This document shows, piece after piece, positions 8,027-40,438 of a stretch of DNA of 64,000 bases (its first letter is position 1; every line of letters starts with the position of its first letter). Below the pieces are notes generated by a model, which was not told the DNA's origin, did not search any database, and saw only the letters and a program-made list of their open reading frames with translations. This DNA is from Candidatus Omnitrophota bacterium (GTDB lineage Bacteria > Omnitrophota > Gorgyraeia > Gygaellales > Profunditerraquicolaceae): assembly GCA_003598135.1 (NCBI GenBank), contig QZKA01000026.1, positions 11,258 to 75,257 of the forward strand, written 5' to 3'. The translations under genes and the position numbers were made by a program.

Positions 8027-8659
8027 CTAATAGAGTTTATAGGGAGACCATGTCCTCCCATACTGCTGCGTATCGATAACTTGCCCGCCTCTGCCGCCGA
8101 CGACCGTTGATCCCTTTGAAGATCCCATTCCGCCAAACCCTCCGGCGACAGATGAAGCTGTCCCTAATAAGGTCGTAGTCATGTTTATCTCCGCTGTCCT
8201 CTTCGCTGCCTTTCCTGCAAACCGGTATAGCGTTGATTGATTCCTTAATGCAATCGCTCGTTCGTTCGCTTCTTTATTTACTGCCCAGGATTGGATATCG
8301 GCATTGTAGCGTATATTCGTTTCATCAAGCTTTGCTCTATTCGCCGTATCGTTAAGAATATCTTCTGCAGTAACACCGGTTAGGCCCATAGCGGCCATCG
8401 CCGCTTTCTGCGCTCCTTTTACCCTTGAGACATCGCCTTTCAGCTCCTTCGCTCTTTGCGCGGCTTCGCTTTGTATAATGCTTGTCTGCTCTTCTGCGGT
8501 TTTCTGTATTGCCTCAGCTTCACGTTCATTCTGGTCAGCTAAATAGCGGTAATACTTATTCTGAGACTGGCCAGCCTGGTATTGGCCGTACGCAGTCATT
8601 CCGCCGCTCGCCGCGGCTAATACTACTCCGGTTATAGTAAGGCTGACAGGGTCGCACAT
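8027..8659 (-). CDS. phage virion protein, 210 aa, Gly-rich C-terminus (gp14-like position)
   Basis: ORF sits between the tail gene and the internal-protein genes. Confidence 0.5.
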   Translation of the reverse strand: MCDPVSLTITGVVLAAASGGMTAYGQYQAGQSQNKYYRYLADQNEREAEAIQKTAEEQTSIIQSEAAQRAKELKGDVSRVKGAQKAAMAAMGLTGVTAEDILNDTANRAKLDETNIRYNADIQSWAVNKEANERAIALRNQSTLYRFAGKAAKRTAEINMTTTLLGTASSVAGGFGGMGSSKGSTVVGGRGGQVIDTQQYGRTWSPYKLY

Positions 8660-17635: not shown

Positions 17636-18643
17636 TTACGATACTAATGATTCGGTGTTGAGGATCTTGTCGCACCGACGGATAGGAATGCCGAAGAAGC
17701 GCGTAATCGGCTTTCCGTTCTCAAGGCTGTCGATGGTAAGATTTACATTGCTCTTGTTGTACGCCTTGATGTCGAGGGCGGTTTTCACCGTCTTGTTGCA
17801 GTACCACGCTACGCGCCCTACGTTGAGAGTGGGTACTTTGTTCAAGGCCTGAATCATGAGCTTGATGAGGTTCGCTGAGACATCAGAGGTGTCGCCGGCT
17901 GTGGCCAATGCAGACACTTCCAGGTTGCAGATACGCACGGCATATCTCCAGTCTCTCACTGCAAGACCCAAACGGGTCTTGTACTGATCGATGTAGGCGC
18001 GGAACTGCCCTGCCGGGGTCTGGTCGTCGTTCACGAGCTGCTTGCCTAAATCTTCATGCTCGATGCCTGCCTTGGTGCCGCGGGGATAAAATGCATGGAT
18101 GGTATTCTCGCCCCATACCACTAACCAGATCGAGGTATTATCTGTATCTGCGCTGCCGCCCAAGATCACGTTTTCGCCTGAGGCTGCAGTCGTAGATGAG
18201 TAATACGCGGAAAGGCCGGTGAATCTCTCAGGGTTCGTTTCTACGTTGCCGTAGAAAAACGTGGTGGCCATGGTCTGAGAGATTGCCTCAATGAACGGGG
18301 CATTCTCAGAAAGCCTGAAGGCTGCTTTGTCAACTGCAATGTTGACGAGCTCTTCGTCAACGCGGCCCAAGCCTTCGATGATACCGGCAGTAAACAACTG
18401 CTGCTTGGTTTGAGACTTAGAGGGCTGCACGCCTCTGTTTATCTGTCTCCAGGCGACTGTCGGCAAGCCTGTTCTTATGGTACTCTTATGGCCGGTCGTG
18501 GTGTTTCCTTCGATGAACACGAGATCGCTCAATATCTCGTTGACCTCGTTCATCATTTCTGCGATGCGGGCAATTTTCCCGTTCGGATCAAGCCGTCTTG
18601 CATGATCCATCAGGGTTAAATTTGTATTCGCGATAGTAGGCAT
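17636..18643 (-). CDS. major capsid protein (HK97-fold type), 335 aa
   Basis: Size and position immediately after the scaffold gene in portal-scaffold-capsid order. Confidence 0.55.
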   Translation of the reverse strand: MPTIANTNLTLMDHARRLDPNGKIARIAEMMNEVNEILSDLVFIEGNTTTGHKSTIRTGLPTVAWRQINRGVQPSKSQTKQQLFTAGIIEGLGRVDEELVNIAVDKAAFRLSENAPFIEAISQTMATTFFYGNVETNPERFTGLSAYYSSTTAASGENVILGGSADTDNTSIWLVVWGENTIHAFYPRGTKAGIEHEDLGKQLVNDDQTPAGQFRAYIDQYKTRLGLAVRDWRYAVRICNLEVSALATAGDTSDVSANLIKLMIQALNKVPTLNVGRVAWYCNKTVKTALDIKAYNKSNVNLTIDSLENGKPITRFFGIPIRRCDKILNTESLVS

Positions 18644-19900: not shown

Positions 19901-21643
19901 TTATTTCGCTCCTGCAGGCTGCGTAGCCGGCTCCTGCTTCTGCGGCATAGATTTCCCTGTCATGGCAGCGATTACTGCGTCAAGGGCGCTATTCTCGCCT
20001 ATTCTGGCTTCAGATAGAGTCTTTGCGCCTTGGGCTGCTATCATACCTGACTGCGCTTGTTGCACACGAAGCTGCGCTTCTTGTTTTGCTTTACGGATTA
20101 CTGCAACCATCTCAGCGCTTCTTAATAGCCGCGCAGGAATTCCTTTCATCTCAGCGTAGGTTTCAACAGCCTCATCAAAATCAAATTTATCTATCACGTT
20201 TGCGTCAATTTTTGATAAATCGCCTACGAAGCCGCATACTTGCTCTATTGCGCTTGTCCCTACCATCTTCTGCGCTTGGGCAAGAACGGAGATATACTCC
20301 ACCTTTATGTCCTGCCCCTCAAGTTCTACGGGCGGTTCCGGTATAAGCCCGGCTCGCAACATCTTGGCGAAGGTAATGTCTATACAAGGATCAAACAGCT
20401 GAGTCTCTAATCCATCGAGTATCGAGCCAAGCATAAGCAGTTTCTCTTCATGGCGTTCTGCTATTTCCCGTGCGGTAATGTCGGTGCGATCTAAATTCTG
20501 CAGCATCAGGAATAAGTCAACATAGAACGTGCTGCCGATATCCTGCTTGGTGATATTAATGGTTTCCTCTAACTCTTTGAAATTAATCTGTACCTGATAG
20601 ACCGCGCGTACTCCTGCGTTCGGCACAGAGGCGGAGCTTGTGTTCACTCCCCCCGGCAAAGTATTGACTTCGCCGCTCACCGATGCGTCTTTCTGAACGG
20701 CCGGGTCTACTGTTTTATCAAGGCCCAACAGCTTCTTCCTCTGCAGTTTCTGCAACATCTTGCAGTCGCCTAATGCGTCCCAGCCCGGTCCTTTCCCATA
20801 GATGTCGCTTGTCGTGGTGGTTGCCCAACGCGGGGCCAATATAGAGAATTCCCTAAATCCCCCTACTCTTAAGAAACAATCCTGAGGAGATCCTTCTTCC
20901 CATTGGATGGAACGATAGGGCATGTTCTTGAAATCTTCCCTGTGCGGTATTCTTTTATCGTTCTCTTCCACAAGGTGAATTACTGAAATCCACTTATCAA
21001 CATCTTTCGATAAGTCGTAGGCGTCCTTTACGGTAGGGCTGACGTTATCGATCCCGAACTCCTTTACCAACTGTCCTGCGGTCATCCAGTACCTTCTGGC
21101 AAACCCATTTACCCTGCCGTCAGGCCCAATACTGAGCCAATATTCGCCGCAGGTAAAGTTATAGCCGCGGATTACCGTATCATAATCATCGACAATAATC
21201 GCAGCTGCGGTGGCGAACGATCCAAGTTCTTCGTAAATTGAATAGAAAATCTCGTAAATATTAGACCGAGAGAACACGTTCAGCATTCTCTCCTGGACTA
21301 TATCGAGCCATAGCTTTACGTTGTCGTTCTCCATAAGATCCGGATCATCGACACCAAGCCTGAACCATGGCCGCGTAGGGCTCGTCATTCCGTTCAGCAT
21401 TCCTGAAGCTAATGTGCGCACGCATCTTCTCGGATAGCCGGACAGCATCGTCTTGTGATCTATGGCCTGCCCTTTATTCGGTTGGTCGTCAAAAAAGCCG
21501 CGCGTGGGGATTTCGTATAATTTGATATCTTTCCAGGTTGGAAGCCAAGACTGCGCCTCATTCTTCATAGCGCTTACGCGGCGCTCGAATTCTTTCCTGT
21601 CAAGACCTACGCCTATCTTCTCTTTAGTTTGTTCTGCCATCAT
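19901..21643 (-). CDS. portal protein, 580 aa
   Basis: Size and position downstream of terminase and upstream of scaffold. Confidence 0.6.
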   Translation of the reverse strand: MMAEQTKEKIGVGLDRKEFERRVSAMKNEAQSWLPTWKDIKLYEIPTRGFFDDQPNKGQAIDHKTMLSGYPRRCVRTLASGMLNGMTSPTRPWFRLGVDDPDLMENDNVKLWLDIVQERMLNVFSRSNIYEIFYSIYEELGSFATAAAIIVDDYDTVIRGYNFTCGEYWLSIGPDGRVNGFARRYWMTAGQLVKEFGIDNVSPTVKDAYDLSKDVDKWISVIHLVEENDKRIPHREDFKNMPYRSIQWEEGSPQDCFLRVGGFREFSILAPRWATTTTSDIYGKGPGWDALGDCKMLQKLQRKKLLGLDKTVDPAVQKDASVSGEVNTLPGGVNTSSASVPNAGVRAVYQVQINFKELEETINITKQDIGSTFYVDLFLMLQNLDRTDITAREIAERHEEKLLMLGSILDGLETQLFDPCIDITFAKMLRAGLIPEPPVELEGQDIKVEYISVLAQAQKMVGTSAIEQVCGFVGDLSKIDANVIDKFDFDEAVETYAEMKGIPARLLRSAEMVAVIRKAKQEAQLRVQQAQSGMIAAQGAKTLSEARIGENSALDAVIAAMTGKSMPQKQEPATQPAGAK

Positions 21644-25801: not shown

Positions 25802-25843
25802 GTACTACTCCTTTCTTTTATTCTTCCTCGCTGGTTTTTTTTA

Positions 25844-25927
25844 TTGCGGGGGTGGGATTCGAACCCACGGTGTCCTTTCGGATACATGGTTATGGGCCAT
25901 GCGACCTCGCCACTGGTCAACCCCGCG
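25844..25927 (-). tRNA. phage-encoded tRNA, apparent anticodon CAT, atypical long variable region
   Basis: D-arm GACC-AGTGGCGA-GGTC, anticodon arm CATGG-CCCATAA-CCATG, T-arm GTGGG-TTCGAAT-CCCAC, 6-bp acceptor with C1-A72 mismatch and A73; 16-nt variable region. Confidence 0.6.
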
Positions 25928-25943
25928 ATTGATTTATCTTTTC

Positions 25944-36461: not shown

Positions 36462-37046
36462 ATGCTGCTTAAAGACCGCATCAGACAATTAAGGGAAGAT
36501 AAAAAACTCCTACAGAAAGAATTCGCCAAAAAGCTCGGCGTATCTAAGCCTACGGTGTCAGCCTGGGAGCAGGGATCAAGGTATCCTAACTCTACCCAAC
36601 GCAAAAAAATATGTGAGTTCTTTGGAATCAGCGAAGCAATGCTTTTTGGTTTGCCGAAGGTGGAGATTGAAGATGCTATCATCCCTATCGTTTCTTCCGT
36701 AGGTGCCACGGACGATCTTGGACGCGCGGCATTTGAGGCGTTCGATCCACCCTATAAAACGATATCTTTTAAAGATTGCAAAGCGGTCGTGGTAGACTCA
36801 AACAGTATGGCGCCGATTGCGTATAAAGGACAGAAGATTATTTACTGCGAAACAGAGCCGGTTCACAACGGGGACCTCGTGTTTATAAAACTCAAAAAGG
36901 GGGCGCAGCTGTTCAAACGCTTTCACAAAAATCACGATAACATTATCACGCTCCAGAGCGTTAACCCTACAGAATCCTTTGATCCTATTCCGGTACACGA
37001 AAAGGAGATTGAATTCTGCTACAAGGTCATGGGAGTGAAGTTTTGA
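36462..37046 (+). CDS. cI: CI-like repressor: XRE HTH plus S24 LexA-type peptidase domain
   Basis: N-terminal HTH; C-terminal SNSMAP (Ser) and LFKRF (Lys) dyad with GDLVFIK; near-leaderless start. Confidence 0.8.
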   Translation: MLLKDRIRQLREDKKLLQKEFAKKLGVSKPTVSAWEQGSRYPNSTQRKKICEFFGISEAMLFGLPKVEIEDAIIPIVSSVGATDDLGRAAFEAFDPPYKTISFKDCKAVVVDSNSMAPIAYKGQKIIYCETEPVHNGDLVFIKLKKGAQLFKRFHKNHDNIITLQSVNPTESFDPIPVHEKEIEFCYKVMGVKF

Positions 37047-37733: not shown

Positions 37734-37891
37734 AAACCGGCATCAAGCTTATCCTGAAACTTATCGGTTATGGTTTCCTTATCTACTATCTTGTTATCTG
37801 CAGCATCGCTAATTGGACCGGCAAGACTCAATATCTCCGCTTCCCCTGGGGTAACACTCCCATTCGATCATACCAAGACGTAGATCCATGA
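37730..37891 (+). CDS. small membrane protein, 53 aa, ATGA-coupled to both neighbours
   Basis: Hydrophobic segment LILKLIGYGFLIYYLVICSIANW. Confidence 0.35.
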   Translation: MKTGIKLILKLIGYGFLIYYLVICSIANWTGKTQYLRFPWGNTPIRSYQDVDP

Positions 37892-38901
37892 GTTCTCTCT
37901 ACCGCCGCAGTGGTATCTACTGGCTCTCTTACCGTCAATATGGGAAGGGCCATTGTATGAGTCTTGAAACCCGGGATCGGTCTACCGCACTCTATAAAAA
38001 AGCCGAAAAAGACAAAGAGCTGATTGAGGGTAGAAGCGTGATCCCTAAAGCGAATGCCACGTGCGCTCCCCTATTGGAAGAATTTCACAACTACAATCTG
38101 CACCGCAAGACAAAAGACGCCAATTCAGATGATTGCAGCAGGATTAAGAAGTTTCTTTCCTGGGCCGGTATCTCATCGTTTAATCAAATCACTGAACAGC
38201 GACTGCAGGAATACCTTAACCATCGCTTCTCTACAGAAAAAATAGCCCCGCGCACGGCGAATATGATCATCACCAATCTTAAAACTTGGCTCAATTTTTG
38301 CGTTAAGAATAGGAGGATACCGGAAAATCCCCTGGCGCGCATGAAGAAGTTTAAAGAACCGGTTAATCCTAAGCGATTCCTCAGCCGCGAAGAGATCAAC
38401 TCTTTGCTCAAAGAGACTCAAAACGATGAGCATTACTGTAACGGGGACGCTTCACTGTATCCGGTAATTGCGATGGGGATATACGCCGGGTTGCGTAAGC
38501 AAGAAATATTCAGCCTGGACTGGCAGGATATCAATTTCAAACGCGAGGAAATAACGGTCAGGAATAAAGCTAACTTTGCTCCAAAATCGAGGAATTTCAG
38601 GGTTGTGCCATTGCACGAGAATCTCAAGAAGATACTGAAGCCTTTGGTCAAGAATAGCGGCCGGTGCTTCGATGTTACGAATCAACGCAGGATATTCGGC
38701 AGGATTACAAAAAAAGCCAATCTTACAGGGATTGGCTGGCATACCTTGCGACACACCTTTGCTTCTCAGCTTGTCATGGCTGGGGTTGACCTGGCTACCG
38801 TGGCTAAACTGCTGGGCCACTCAAGCATCACCACTACGATGATCTACAGCCACCTTTCTCCGGACCATGTCCGGGGGGCTATAGATAAACTCAGCTTCTA
38901 A
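37888..38901 (+). CDS. int: tyrosine integrase
   Basis: Catalytic R (GLRKQE), HTLRHTFAS (HxxR), MIYSHL (Tyr). Confidence 0.85.
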   Translation: MSSLYRRSGIYWLSYRQYGKGHCMSLETRDRSTALYKKAEKDKELIEGRSVIPKANATCAPLLEEFHNYNLHRKTKDANSDDCSRIKKFLSWAGISSFNQITEQRLQEYLNHRFSTEKIAPRTANMIITNLKTWLNFCVKNRRIPENPLARMKKFKEPVNPKRFLSREEINSLLKETQNDEHYCNGDASLYPVIAMGIYAGLRKQEIFSLDWQDINFKREEITVRNKANFAPKSRNFRVVPLHENLKKILKPLVKNSGRCFDVTNQRRIFGRITKKANLTGIGWHTLRHTFASQLVMAGVDLATVAKLLGHSSITTTMIYSHLSPDHVRGAIDKLSF

Positions 38902-38977: not shown

Positions 38978-39015
38978 TTATGAGTCACCTGCTCTACCAC
39001 TGAGCTATGGGCCCC
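38978..39015 (-). pseudogene. tRNA-Met (CAT) 5' fragment; probable prophage attachment junction
   Basis: GGGGCCCATAGCTCAGTGGTAGAGCAGGTGACTCATAA matches elongator tRNA-Met through the anticodon loop, then homology ends; no T-arm. Confidence 0.5.
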
Positions 39016-39217
39016 AAAATCTAGACCTTTACCATCACATAGCGAATCCGCTAATGTATTATAGCGGAGCGCTATGGGCCCTTGACACATTATTATAATA
39101 GCCGCAAACTCGCAAGACCGCGAAATTATGTCAAAATGTAACATTATATGATACTATTTTTAAAGTATTTTGGCAAGACAAAAATTGTTAAAAAATAAAG
39201 AAATAGAGCTGCTCCTC

Positions 39218-39246
39218 TTGAATAAACCGTAACGCTGTGGCATACT
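39218..39246 (+). promoter_or_regulatory. promoter (-35 TTGAAT, 17 bp spacer, -10 CATACT) driving the riboswitch transcript
   Basis: Spacing and hexamers directly upstream of the aptamer. Confidence 0.45.
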
Positions 39247-39249
39247 TTA

Positions 39250-39350
39250 ATTGCCGATAAAAGCAAACTATCCGAAAGGGTAGGACGCAAAGCTACAGGG
39301 CCTAAAGACCGCGCAAGCGGAACATGGTAGCCAGTTGCCGAAGCGAACGC
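39250..39350 (+). ncRNA. cyclic-di-GMP-I (GEMM) riboswitch aptamer
   Basis: GCAAAC-UAUCC-GAAA-GGGUAG-GACGCAAAGC..GGGCCUAAAG..ACCGC-GCAA-GCGG..GGUAGCC matches conserved GEMM-I elements (compare the Vc2 aptamer). Confidence 0.75.
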
Positions 39351-39367
39351 AGGGCCACAAAAAACCC

Positions 39368-39400
39368 GCGCCGACCGCTTTTTATCGGCGTTTTTATTTT
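39368..39400. terminator. bidirectional intrinsic terminator (CGCCGA-N10-TCGGCG, U-tracts on both strands)
   Basis: Hairpin followed by TTTTTATTTT on the plus strand and GGGTTTTTTGTGG on the minus strand. Confidence 0.6.
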
Positions 39401-39438
39401 GTAGGTAGTAAAGAAATTTGGAACGGTGGGCGTGCTGT

Positions 39439-39645
39439 CTAAAAAATCGTCTTCTTGGCTTTCTTATACCACGGACAATCCCAACAATAGGTAAAATCCT
39501 TCGGGCTTTTCGGATGGAAACTGTCACCTAACCAACAGTACCTACCAAGGTCGTTCTTGAAGGCGCGGCATCCCTGCTTTGCCTCTTTCGAACATTGCCA
39601 GAACTCCCAGCAATTTTGGGGTCCTTCTGAATTATCGCGCCTCAT
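39439..39645 (-). CDS. small Cys-rich protein, about 68 aa (start at the Met preceded by SD GGAGGAGGGGGAG)
   Basis: Seven Cys in the CWEFWQC...CRAFKNDLGRYCW...YCWDCPW patterns. Confidence 0.4.
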   Translation of the reverse strand: MRRDNSEGPQNCWEFWQCSKEAKQGCRAFKNDLGRYCWLGDSFHPKSPKDFTYCWDCPWYKKAKKTIF

Positions 39646-39874
39646 CTCCCCCTCCTCCACCTTACCGAGAGATGCGCTCACGCACAAACGCTTCTTCTAG
39701 TATCATCCTACTGCGTTAAAATGATTTGTCAACAAAAATAAAGGTTGTCATAATGCTGGATATTTGCGGGTTTAGGCTGCAAACAAAGCCTGCGGGGTGA
39801 TTTCTGTTTTGCGGCCTAAGAAAACTTAAAGAATAGGAAATTCTTAGTTTTTGAGGAAAAGCCAGAAAGGAATG

Positions 39875-40204
39875 TTATGTGTTCTTGAGGAGATGGTAGC
39901 TTCCCATCAAGTCAGTTTCTTCCAGGTCAATCCCTGCCATATATCTATTACAAATGGTAGATTTTGACCAAACGACCATGCCGCGGGTAAACAGGGGTTC
40001 TTGATGGTGTGGGAAATACAGCCATATACCTACAATCATACGCACAGAGAGTTCTTCGCTTGTTACAAGGCAAAGGCCTTTAGCGCAGACATTGTAAGTC
40101 TCGGCATCGTTGTTGTAATACGAATCTGAGCTGCAATACTTCACCGCGAGCCTTGCTGAGCAACGTTCAAATACCCTCCGGTCTTCAAAACCTAGGTCAT
40201 CCAT
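39875..40204 (-). CDS. PilZ domain (c-di-GMP receptor) protein, 109 aa
   Basis: RRVFER (RxxxR) and a downstream D/NxSxxG-like segment. Confidence 0.45.
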   Translation of the reverse strand: MDDLGFEDRRVFERCSARLAVKYCSSDSYYNNDAETYNVCAKGLCLVTSEELSVRMIVGIWLYFPHHQEPLFTRGMVVWSKSTICNRYMAGIDLEETDLMGSYHLLKNT

Positions 40205-40438
40205 CTCTCTCCTGTATGCCGGTAATAAAAAGACCGCGCTGCCCCCTTTTCCGGCAACCCGGCTATCGAAAACCGCTACATTCGACCCGTAGGCTTTCCG
40301 CTTCTCAAATACACGAGATTTGGCTTTTTCGGTGAAGGATTGCTCCTAATATAATAATAATTAATAATTAACAAAAATCAAGGGGTCAAAGGGGCCTGGA
40401 AGAAAGCGTTTTCACAAGAGAAAACAAAATACCGGGAT

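Follow-up and report, generated by a model that had tools for sequence, protein, structure and literature searches.

An orphan GEMM-I riboswitch RNA with its own promoter and terminator, convergent to a PilZ-like cassette in Omnitrophota

The window analyzed here is a 64,000-nucleotide (nt) stretch of the genome of a Candidatus Omnitrophota bacterium (assembly GCA_003598135.1, contig QZKA01000026.1, positions 11,258 to 75,257 of the forward strand), and all coordinates given below are positions within it unless another contig is named. At 39218-39400 the plus strand carries a promoter, an aptamer of the GEMM-I riboswitch family and an intrinsic terminator, with no gene following on the same strand. 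Instead, as an earlier sequence-only reading of the window had described, this orphan unit faces the 3′ ends of two minus-strand genes, one for a Cys-rich protein resembling the two-CW domain family and one for a PilZ-like protein. The parts of the unit are as follows:

39218-39246, plus strand: promoter of the orphan RNA, with the -35 element TTGAAT at 39218-39223, a 17-nt spacer and the -10 element CATACT at 39241-39246
39252-39342, plus strand: GEMM-I aptamer (RF01051, 70.4 bits)
39253-39262, plus strand: 5′ strand of helix P1, GCCGAUAAAA, the first nucleotides of the predicted transcript, invariant in all lineages
A39262 and C39338, plus strand: equivalents of ligand-contacting bases, at the positions of G20 and C92 of the Vc2 RNA, respectively
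G39263-C39288 and C39264-G39287, plus strand: aptamer core pairs
39268-39283, plus strand: aptamer helix P2, with a GAAA loop
39291-39336, plus strand: aptamer helix P3, with a GCAA loop
39343-39368, plus strand: linker, with a small hairpin GCAGGG/CCCGC (39349-39369) of probability 0.7-0.8
39369-39400, both strands: bidirectional intrinsic terminator, a 6-base-pair (bp) stem of CGCCGA (39369-39374) with UCGGCG (39385-39390) and a 10-nt loop

The element at 39252-39342 is a genuine GEMM-I aptamer, and the unit is a non-coding orphan transcription unit built from a complete riboswitch. All 87 positions of the RF01051 (c-di-GMP-I) covariance model are covered by the match, whose score lies well over the gathering score of 35 (E = 9.2e-12 for the entire 64-kb window searched with 4227 Rfam families), and the orthologue in a related lineage, L002, scores 67.8 bits. 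Every sequence element that had been quoted in favor of this assignment is present, namely GCAAAC, the CUAUCC-GAAA-GGGUAG hairpin, GGACGCAAAGC, GGGCCUAAAG, the GCAA-capped hairpin and GGUAGCC. The RNA thus resembles other GEMM-I and GEMM-Ib representatives (RF01051) in its full-length match, GAAA tetraloop hairpin, receptor hairpin, ACGCAAAG and C92 equivalent, and it shares the A at position 20 with GEMM-Ib (PMC6140456). Unlike them, it lies outside any 5′ leader and has no gene downstream.

The lack of a gene to control in cis is evident in all three lineages that carry the unit. No conserved plus-strand open reading frame (ORF) was found past the terminator in any of them; the longest frames there encode 35-60 amino acids and differ between lineages. 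Moreover, no plus-strand frame stays open across the convergent two-CW gene, as stops occur in all three frames in each lineage, and over more than 20 kb beyond, substantial ORFs occur exclusively on the minus strand. Because no conserved plus-strand ORF lies downstream, a standard cis-acting role is excluded, and the earlier view that this is not an ordinary cis riboswitch holds, since the transcription unit contains no same-strand gene.

The orphan unit occupies the same position in three related Omnitrophota lineages represented by six assemblies, which are that of the window, L002 (GCA_040754255.1) and L003 (GCA_028717045.1 and three identical or nearly identical assemblies from ENA, JGI and Logan). 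In all three lineages the features are arranged as rpoD, a GEMM-I riboswitch, pilZ, the two-CW gene, the orphan GEMM-I pointing back, and tRNA-Met. Because this arrangement recurs in two further lineages, the orphan unit is not an assembly artefact. The window and L002 are about 85% identical genome-wide, and along the locus their identities are:

39196-39247, promoter region, comprising conserved hexamers and a diverged spacer: 61.5%
39248-39342, 5′ flank and aptamer: 94.7%
39343-39405, linker and terminator: 100% (63/63)
Terminator to the two-CW stop codon: 48.5%
Two-CW coding sequence: 87.9%
pilZ coding sequence: 85.5%

Across 39248-39405, 153 of 158 nt are identical. The few substitutions within the aptamer either maintain a pair, as in the change of U-A to U-G in P2, or are confined to loops and bulges, as in the change of GCAA to GUAA in the L003 group. 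The alignments therefore provide strong evidence of purifying selection on the orphan RNA, which is under much stronger constraint than the surrounding proteins.

This conservation extends over a narrow phylogenetic range. Riboswitches next to rpoD were not found in more distant Omnitrophota (RpoD 82, 78 and 75% identical), the closest of which has pilZ directly after rpoD, without a riboswitch. A scan of the genome collection for A20-type GEMM-I RNAs, which have an A at the position of Vc2 G20, yielded 27 loci, with the orphan unit present only in L014 and L026, the L003 and L002 contigs. A blastn comparison of the full RNA with all loci obtained, including the metagenome GEMM-I RNAs, which were unrelated, gave no new lineage carrying it among the matches listed, and viral contigs gave no match to the orphan unit. 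By these surveys, the module is confined to one genus-level group. Elsewhere in the phylum, Omnitrophota GWA2_41_15 carries an A20-type GEMM-I (L029, 6662-6757, plus strand) whose first 50 nt are about 92% identical to the window aptamer. This RNA is an ordinary leader, followed by a strong terminator and then a signal-peptide ORF, and it scores 59.5 bits with the c-di-GMP-I-GGC variant model (cut-off 59). Its existence suggests that the orphan was derived from a normal riboswitch. A 6S RNA is located near this leader (L029 2543-2702, plus strand).

The promoter of the orphan RNA matches the consensus at 8 of 12 hexamer positions in the window and at 9 of 12 in L002 and L003, and it was not among the sites called by the consensus scan. 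Its form in the other lineages is TTGAAC or TTGAAT, 17 nt, TATACT, so that across the three lineages the hexamers are kept and the spacer sequence has diverged. Because the hexamers are conserved around a freely diverging 17-nt spacer, we consider the promoter to be a working one, and this pattern constitutes good comparative evidence that it is real. What had been described as a good sigma70 promoter is thus present upstream of the aptamer, but its consensus match is modest. Transcription is predicted to start near G39253.

Directly downstream of the aptamer lies the terminator, which is bidirectional, as had been proposed. On the plus strand the local hairpin is weak (6 bp, 10-nt loop, -7.5 kcal/mol) and is followed by the tail UUUUUAUUUU (39391-39400). 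Read on the minus strand, the same region forms a 7-bp hairpin of -11.5 kcal/mol followed by CGGGUUUUUU, with the U-tract provided by the A-rich loop of the linker hairpin (A39359-39364). The terminator scan called the hairpin on the minus strand, and its miss on the plus strand was due only to a loop-size limit. The terminator also ends the two-CW mRNA on the minus strand. A single loop substitution in the L003 group (C39375A) is the only change in an otherwise invariant sequence.

The first nucleotides of the predicted transcript (39253-39262, GCCGAUAAAA) are complementary at 10 of 10 positions to 39380-39389 (UUUUAUCGGC), within the terminator loop and 3′ arm that the helix shares (39377-39389). 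The sequence-only reading had recognized this complementarity, which is real, and had interpreted it as an anti-terminator, a role that now appears doubtful. Among 135 other GEMM-I sequences surveyed, it is common for a 5′ flank xCGAyAAAR to pair with a downstream UUUrUCGx. In these RNAs the 3′ strand follows the aptamer after a spacer of 7 to about 60 nt, and genes lie downstream. Because the same pairing is common in other GEMM-I RNAs, the helix in the orphan RNA is best regarded as the ordinary P1 that closes the aptamer. What is unusual is the use of the terminator loop and 3′ arm as the 3′ strand of this P1, together with a 5′ strand that starts with the predicted first nucleotide of the RNA. 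P1 is part of the minimum-free-energy fold, with a pair probability of about 1.0 for the outer six pairs and 0.23 for the innermost, and the probability of the local terminator hairpin is near 0. Because the helix ends directly at the U-tract, P1 should promote rather than prevent termination, and we have demoted it as an anti-terminator. Yarnell and Roberts reportedly found in 1999 that any duplex with the downstream arm of a terminator releases the transcript.

A better candidate for the anti-terminator, suggested by folding, is a helix that we call X, in which GAAGCG (39340-39345), the aptamer 3′ tail directly after the C92 equivalent, would pair with CGCUUU (39376-39381). Helix X is seen in the fold of the nascent (prefix) RNA, is as stable as the local hairpin, and crosses that hairpin such that the two are mutually exclusive. 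Computed with the Rfam aptamer fold held fixed, the energies of the alternatives are:

Aptamer fold alone: -26.0 kcal/mol
Aptamer with helix X: -30.5 kcal/mol, of which helix X contributes -4.5 kcal/mol
Aptamer with the local terminator hairpin: -30.8 kcal/mol
Aptamer with the long helix (P1): -39.1 kcal/mol

Two gene-linked GEMM-I RNAs (L132 and L027) have a leader segment just upstream of P1 that is complementary to the terminator 3′ arm, bridging the terminator 5′ arm. This competition layout matches that of the orphan unit and may represent a recurrent design of GEMM-I expression platforms.

The cassette that the orphan RNA faces contains the following features:

39439-39645, minus strand: two-CW-like Cys-rich gene, 68 amino acids, convergent to the orphan RNA and distantly related to the two-CW domain family
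39732-39705, minus strand: two-CW gene promoter, TTGACA-16-TAGGAT, conserved and facing the riboswitch
39875-40204, minus strand: PilZ-like gene, 109 amino acids, with the RxxxR motif RRVFER and a second motif NVCAKG (NxCxxG)
40250-40334, minus strand: second GEMM-I aptamer (RF01051, 48.5 bits against 35), situated in the leader of pilZ, 45 nt upstream of its start codon, with G at the G20 position

The two-CW gene begins with an ATG at 39645 after a Shine-Dalgarno sequence, GGAGGAGGGGGAG. Its product matches NF045718, the NCBIfam two-CW domain, at 15.4 bits, which is below the cut-off, and belongs to a broad family of 60-85-residue proteins with 149 cluster representatives at E <= 1e-3. Comparison with L002 reveals 21 synonymous versus 3 non-synonymous codon changes among 68 codons, indicating clear purifying selection, and on this comparative evidence the ORF is a real gene. 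When about 140 other GEMM-I loci were searched with a hidden Markov model built from 129 family members, no two-CW gene was found, so that in this sample two-CW genes show no general link to GEMM-I.

Assignment to PilZ is plausible but falls below threshold, as PF07238 scores 16.7 bits against a cut-off of 22.5, TIGR02266 matches weakly, and the second motif has Cys in place of the Ser of (D/N)xSxxG. The GEMM-I aptamer in the pilZ leader, which the sequence-only reading does not mention, is also found in L002 (95% identical), in L003 and in L001, a 57-kb JGI contig (Ga0394679_031955) that is 99.85% identical to the window. With the c-di-GMP-I-GGC variant model it reaches 47.2 bits in a permissive scan, short of the cut-off of 59. 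Its 5′ flank, CCGAAAAAG, can pair with CUUUUU(AUUAC)CGG about 30 nt past the aptamer, and AAUCCUUCA, just upstream of this flank, could pair with the Shine-Dalgarno and start region by complementarity, pointing to control at the level of translation. Only the window lineage and L001 have an insertion of about 120 nt (39746-39866) that separates the pilZ stop codon from the two-CW promoter; it is absent from L002 and L003, and no second copy occurs in the window or in any of the other loci compared.

On its other side, the orphan riboswitch starts about 235 nt from the junction of a T7-like prophage that makes up the left 39 kb of the window (1-38977), and the riboswitch itself is chromosomal. 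The prophage also carries RecT, YqaJ and ParB genes, and includes:

8027-8659: gp14-like gene
17636-18643: GP7 capsid gene
19901-21643: portal gene
25843-25928, minus strand: tRNA-Met (CAU), 86 nt, found by Rfam (47.9 bits) and ARAGORN, with a long variable-region insertion
36462-37046: S24/HTH repressor gene
37888-38901, plus strand: tyrosine integrase gene

Insertion took place in the anticodon loop of the host tRNA-Met, of which the 5′ 40 nt remain at 39017-38978 (minus strand) and the 3′ half lies outside the window. The prophage tRNA-Met might compensate for this disruption. In L002, L003 and L155 the tRNA-Met is intact, accompanied by a tRNA-Val, and there is no prophage. The L001 contig ends at the equivalent of window position 39648, where the two-CW gene has its start codon. 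A further 250 nt or so would have brought it to the riboswitch terminator and about 630 nt to the prophage junction, and strain heterogeneity at the insertion site may be the reason that it stops there. The 11-nt sequence GCTATGGGCCC, from the 5′ end of the tRNA-Met remnant, occurs as a direct repeat at 39004-39014 and 39071-39081, with its copies offset by 67 nt, and this duplication was not seen in L002. Between the remnant and the riboswitch promoter, a 72-nt AT-rich block (39124-39195) is 97-100% identical in all lineages, with flanks at 50-60%. It contains the minus-strand promoter-like sequences TTGCCA-17-TATCAT and TTAACA-16-AATACT, as well as an inverted copy of ATACTTTAA, a 9-mer at the -10 region of the riboswitch promoter. 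The block is probably the promoter of the tRNA operon, although it is conserved beyond a promoter's need.

The identity of the ligand bears on any interpretation of the orphan RNA. In all lineages an A (A39262), and not a G, occupies the position of Vc2 G20, immediately 5′ of the G-C core pair. Vc2 G20 presumably corresponds to position 11 of the RF01051 model, a mapping that combines the Vc2 sequence with PMC6140456. The other ligand contacts, A47 (the first A of CGCAAAG) and C92 (C39338), are kept, and the base signature of GEMM-Ib is present, with AAAA followed by GC at 39259-39264 and GCC at 39337-39339. An A at position 20 is uncommon, occurring in 5 of 121 metagenome GEMM-I RNAs among the matches listed for a pattern permitting either purine. 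The base at this position contacts one of the ligand bases, and the G20-to-A change defines the GEMM-Ib RNAs that sense cyclic GMP-AMP (cGAMP) (PMC6140456). However, Vc2 carrying G20A and several natural A20 RNAs bind both ligands, with cyclic di-GMP (c-di-GMP) bound via a protonated adenine, and the natural A20 RNAs extend from the cGAMP-selective Gs1761 through to the c-di-GMP-preferring Cbe 1-2 (30 nM versus 463 nM); P1 stability may also influence selectivity (PMC6140456). Given the A at the G20 position, the c-di-GMP label of the sequence-only reading is correct as to the GEMM-I family but an assumption as to the ligand. The orphan aptamer may bind c-di-GMP and/or 3′3′-cGAMP, as A20 alone does not predict selectivity.

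Riboswitch-controlled antisense or decoy non-coding RNAs include the S-box antisense RNA of C. acetobutylicum and the B12-controlled AspocR and Rli55/EutX, in which the read-through part is functional. In these systems, as would be the case here, termination by a riboswitch sets the length of a non-coding transcript that acts on a neighboring gene. They differ from the orphan unit in having other classes of ligand, and their read-through function has been demonstrated, whereas here it is proposed.

Orphan and convergent arrangements of c-di-GMP riboswitches are likewise already known from a small group of examples. The merRNA of Bdellovibrio bacteriovorus is also a non-coding c-di-GMP riboswitch RNA of narrow lineage without a conserved downstream ORF, but it is 445 nt long, massively expressed and a proposed sponge, whereas the Omnitrophota RNA is predicted to be about 145 nt and has a modest promoter (PMC3627812). 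An antisense-acting riboswitch is cited in the same work (PMC3627812). In C. difficile, an orphan GEMM-I between CD2517 and CD2517.1 is described as having 'no known function' (PMC11477304), and the GEMM-I riboswitches Cdi1_4/5 precede the antisense RNAs RCd11/12, which comprise a terminated species of about 140 nt and a c-di-GMP-repressed read-through species of about 400 nt (PMC7699646). Most class-I c-di-GMP riboswitches terminate transcription on ligand binding (PMC7699646). The Cdi1_4/5-RCd11/12 loci are similar to the orphan unit in having their own promoter and terminator, in pointing toward a convergent gene for a small protein, and in the size of the terminated species. However, their target is a hydrophobic type I toxin of a prophage, and a second, riboswitch-independent promoter makes the main antitoxin. 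The Omnitrophota locus is chromosomal, with a soluble-looking Cys-rich two-CW protein opposite the riboswitch and no second promoter evident. A type I toxin-antitoxin system was rejected here, as the translated 68-residue protein is charged and rich in Cys and Trp and has no hydrophobic helix. What is noteworthy in Omnitrophota is the merging of P1 with a bidirectional terminator, and the placement of two GEMM-I RNAs, one with A and one with G at position 20, opposite each other on either side of a single PilZ cassette.

Taken together, the sequence features suggest that the orphan RNA probably works as a small signal-binding or antisense RNA, and all the models that we considered predict an RNA of about 145 nt, closed by P1, as its most likely main product. 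We tentatively favor, with a probability of roughly 0.4, a model in which ligand-tuned termination limits convergent antisense read-through, because this is the usual role of riboswitches that bear terminators, because it gives the invariant platform a role, and because there is a precedent in C. difficile. The layout of a riboswitch with its own promoter and terminator facing a convergent gene is of the antisense type. In such a mechanism, transcription would begin near G39253 and mostly end in the U-tract at 39391-39400, and the first ten nucleotides of the resulting RNA would pair with 39380-39389 as the closing P1. A ligand-bound aptamer (with c-di-GMP and/or 3′3′-cGAMP) would hold its 3′ tail, allowing P1 or the local hairpin to form against the U-tract and stop transcription. 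Without ligand, the GAAGCG tail could pair with CGCUUU and block the weak local hairpin, permitting some polymerases to continue. The extended transcript would first be antisense to the two-CW gene, including its promoter, and then to pilZ, and it would lower the expression of these genes by collision or by forming duplexes. What the ligand would regulate, by switching it off, is thus antisense transcription from the convergent unit, and pilZ would additionally be under cis control of its own G20-type GEMM-I riboswitch.

Several observations weigh against this model. P1 has an advantage of about 8 kcal/mol, with a probability close to 1 at equilibrium, whereas helix X is weak in composition, with three G-C, two A-U and one G-U pair. 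Furthermore, every duplex of the 3′ arm, whether in P1 or with the local 5′ arm, abuts the U-tract, and thus termination may be constitutive. P1, the local hairpin and helix X are all invariant across the available sequences, and none of them has support from covariation; the three L003-like assemblies added no new variation by which P1 could be distinguished from the local hairpin. In favor of the model, on the other hand, invariance so nearly complete is what would be expected if the bases of the platform took part in several alternative helices. Finally, on the side against it, the unit is restricted to three closely related lineages and absent from distant rpoD loci, and past the terminator only the coding sequence itself is conserved.

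The main competing explanation, which we consider somewhat less likely, is that the RNA is a constitutively terminated, stand-alone ligand-binding small RNA of about 145 nt closed by P1. It could act as a buffer of c-di-GMP or cGAMP, or ligand binding could change the exposure of a segment, for example displaced CGCCGACCGC, to a partner in trans. The dominance of P1 in the ensemble is consistent with this possibility, as joining the 5′ end to the 3′ end is a typical design of stable small RNAs, and so is the position of all 3′-arm helices against the U-tract. The merRNA, a riboswitch RNA without a conserved downstream ORF and proposed to be a c-di-GMP sponge (PMC3627812), and the orphan GEMM-I of C. 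difficile (PMC11477304) would be precedents. Nevertheless, a promoter with 8-9 of 12 consensus positions is unlike the massive expression of merRNA, and the pilZ and two-CW leaders lack significant complementarity to the orphan RNA, with RNAduplex scores no better than those of shuffled controls. Nor is it obvious why a pure sponge should need 63 fully invariant nucleotides of linker and terminator, although some of this conservation is accounted for by the terminator function on the minus strand.

It is unlikely that the function resides in the 3′-end overlap itself. In this case the hairpin would be primarily the terminator of the two-CW mRNA, and the orphan RNA, with about 40 complementary nucleotides (39358-39400), would modulate the stability or processing of the mRNA 3′ end in a ligand-dependent manner as P1 hides or frees the shared 3′ arm. 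The hairpin is indeed stronger on the minus strand (-11.5 versus -7.5 kcal/mol), it is invariant together with the A-tract at 39359-39364, and both transcripts necessarily overlap at their 3′ ends. However, any convergent pair sharing a bidirectional terminator would overlap in this way without function, and there is no further support for this possibility.

We consider it very improbable that the unit is a decaying relic of a riboswitch whose gene was lost by rearrangement. The related A20-type GEMM-I of L029 is an ordinary leader and the orphan unit is limited to one genus-level group, as might be expected of such a remnant. Yet the RNA has only 5 substitutions in 158 nt, compared with synonymous change in 21 of 68 neighboring codons and 48-61% identity in neutral spacer, and its promoter hexamers are maintained. 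A decaying relic is ruled out by this constraint, which exceeds that on the surrounding proteins. Least credible of all is cis regulation of an unrecognized small plus-strand ORF, for candidates exist (39418-39531, 37 amino acids, in the window and one of 61 amino acids in L002), but they differ between lineages and are antisense to a gene under purifying selection with stops in all plus frames, and the sequence directly past the terminator is only 48% identical. We therefore rejected both the relic and the small-peptide readings on conservation grounds.

A more elaborate version of ligand-tuned termination, which is speculative and rather improbable, is a two-input circuit. The G20-type GEMM-I would control pilZ in cis, and the A20-type RNA, cGAMP-preferring or bispecific, would gate antisense transcription into the same cassette by using P1 as a terminator stem, while the terminated RNA could also buffer a meaningful fraction of the ligand present in the very small cells reported for Omnitrophota. 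If this were true, a single PilZ/two-CW module would be under the influence of two related second messengers, working from opposite DNA strands.

Riboswitch aptamers that are kept by selection without a regulated gene are rare and mostly without a settled function, and even the role of merRNA is still a proposal. Although the orphan unit does not represent a new class of element, it adds direct evidence for RNA sensing of cyclic dinucleotides in uncultivated Omnitrophota. With a predicted length of about 145 nt, sharp boundaries set by its promoter and terminator, conservation well in excess of that around it and a position opposite a riboswitch-bearing PilZ cassette, it provides a compact test case. 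The questions that it raises are whether the P1 helix of a riboswitch is able to serve as a terminator stem, whether convergent antisense transcription takes part in cyclic-dinucleotide signaling outside Clostridia, and which ligands A20-type aptamers recognize outside Geobacter.

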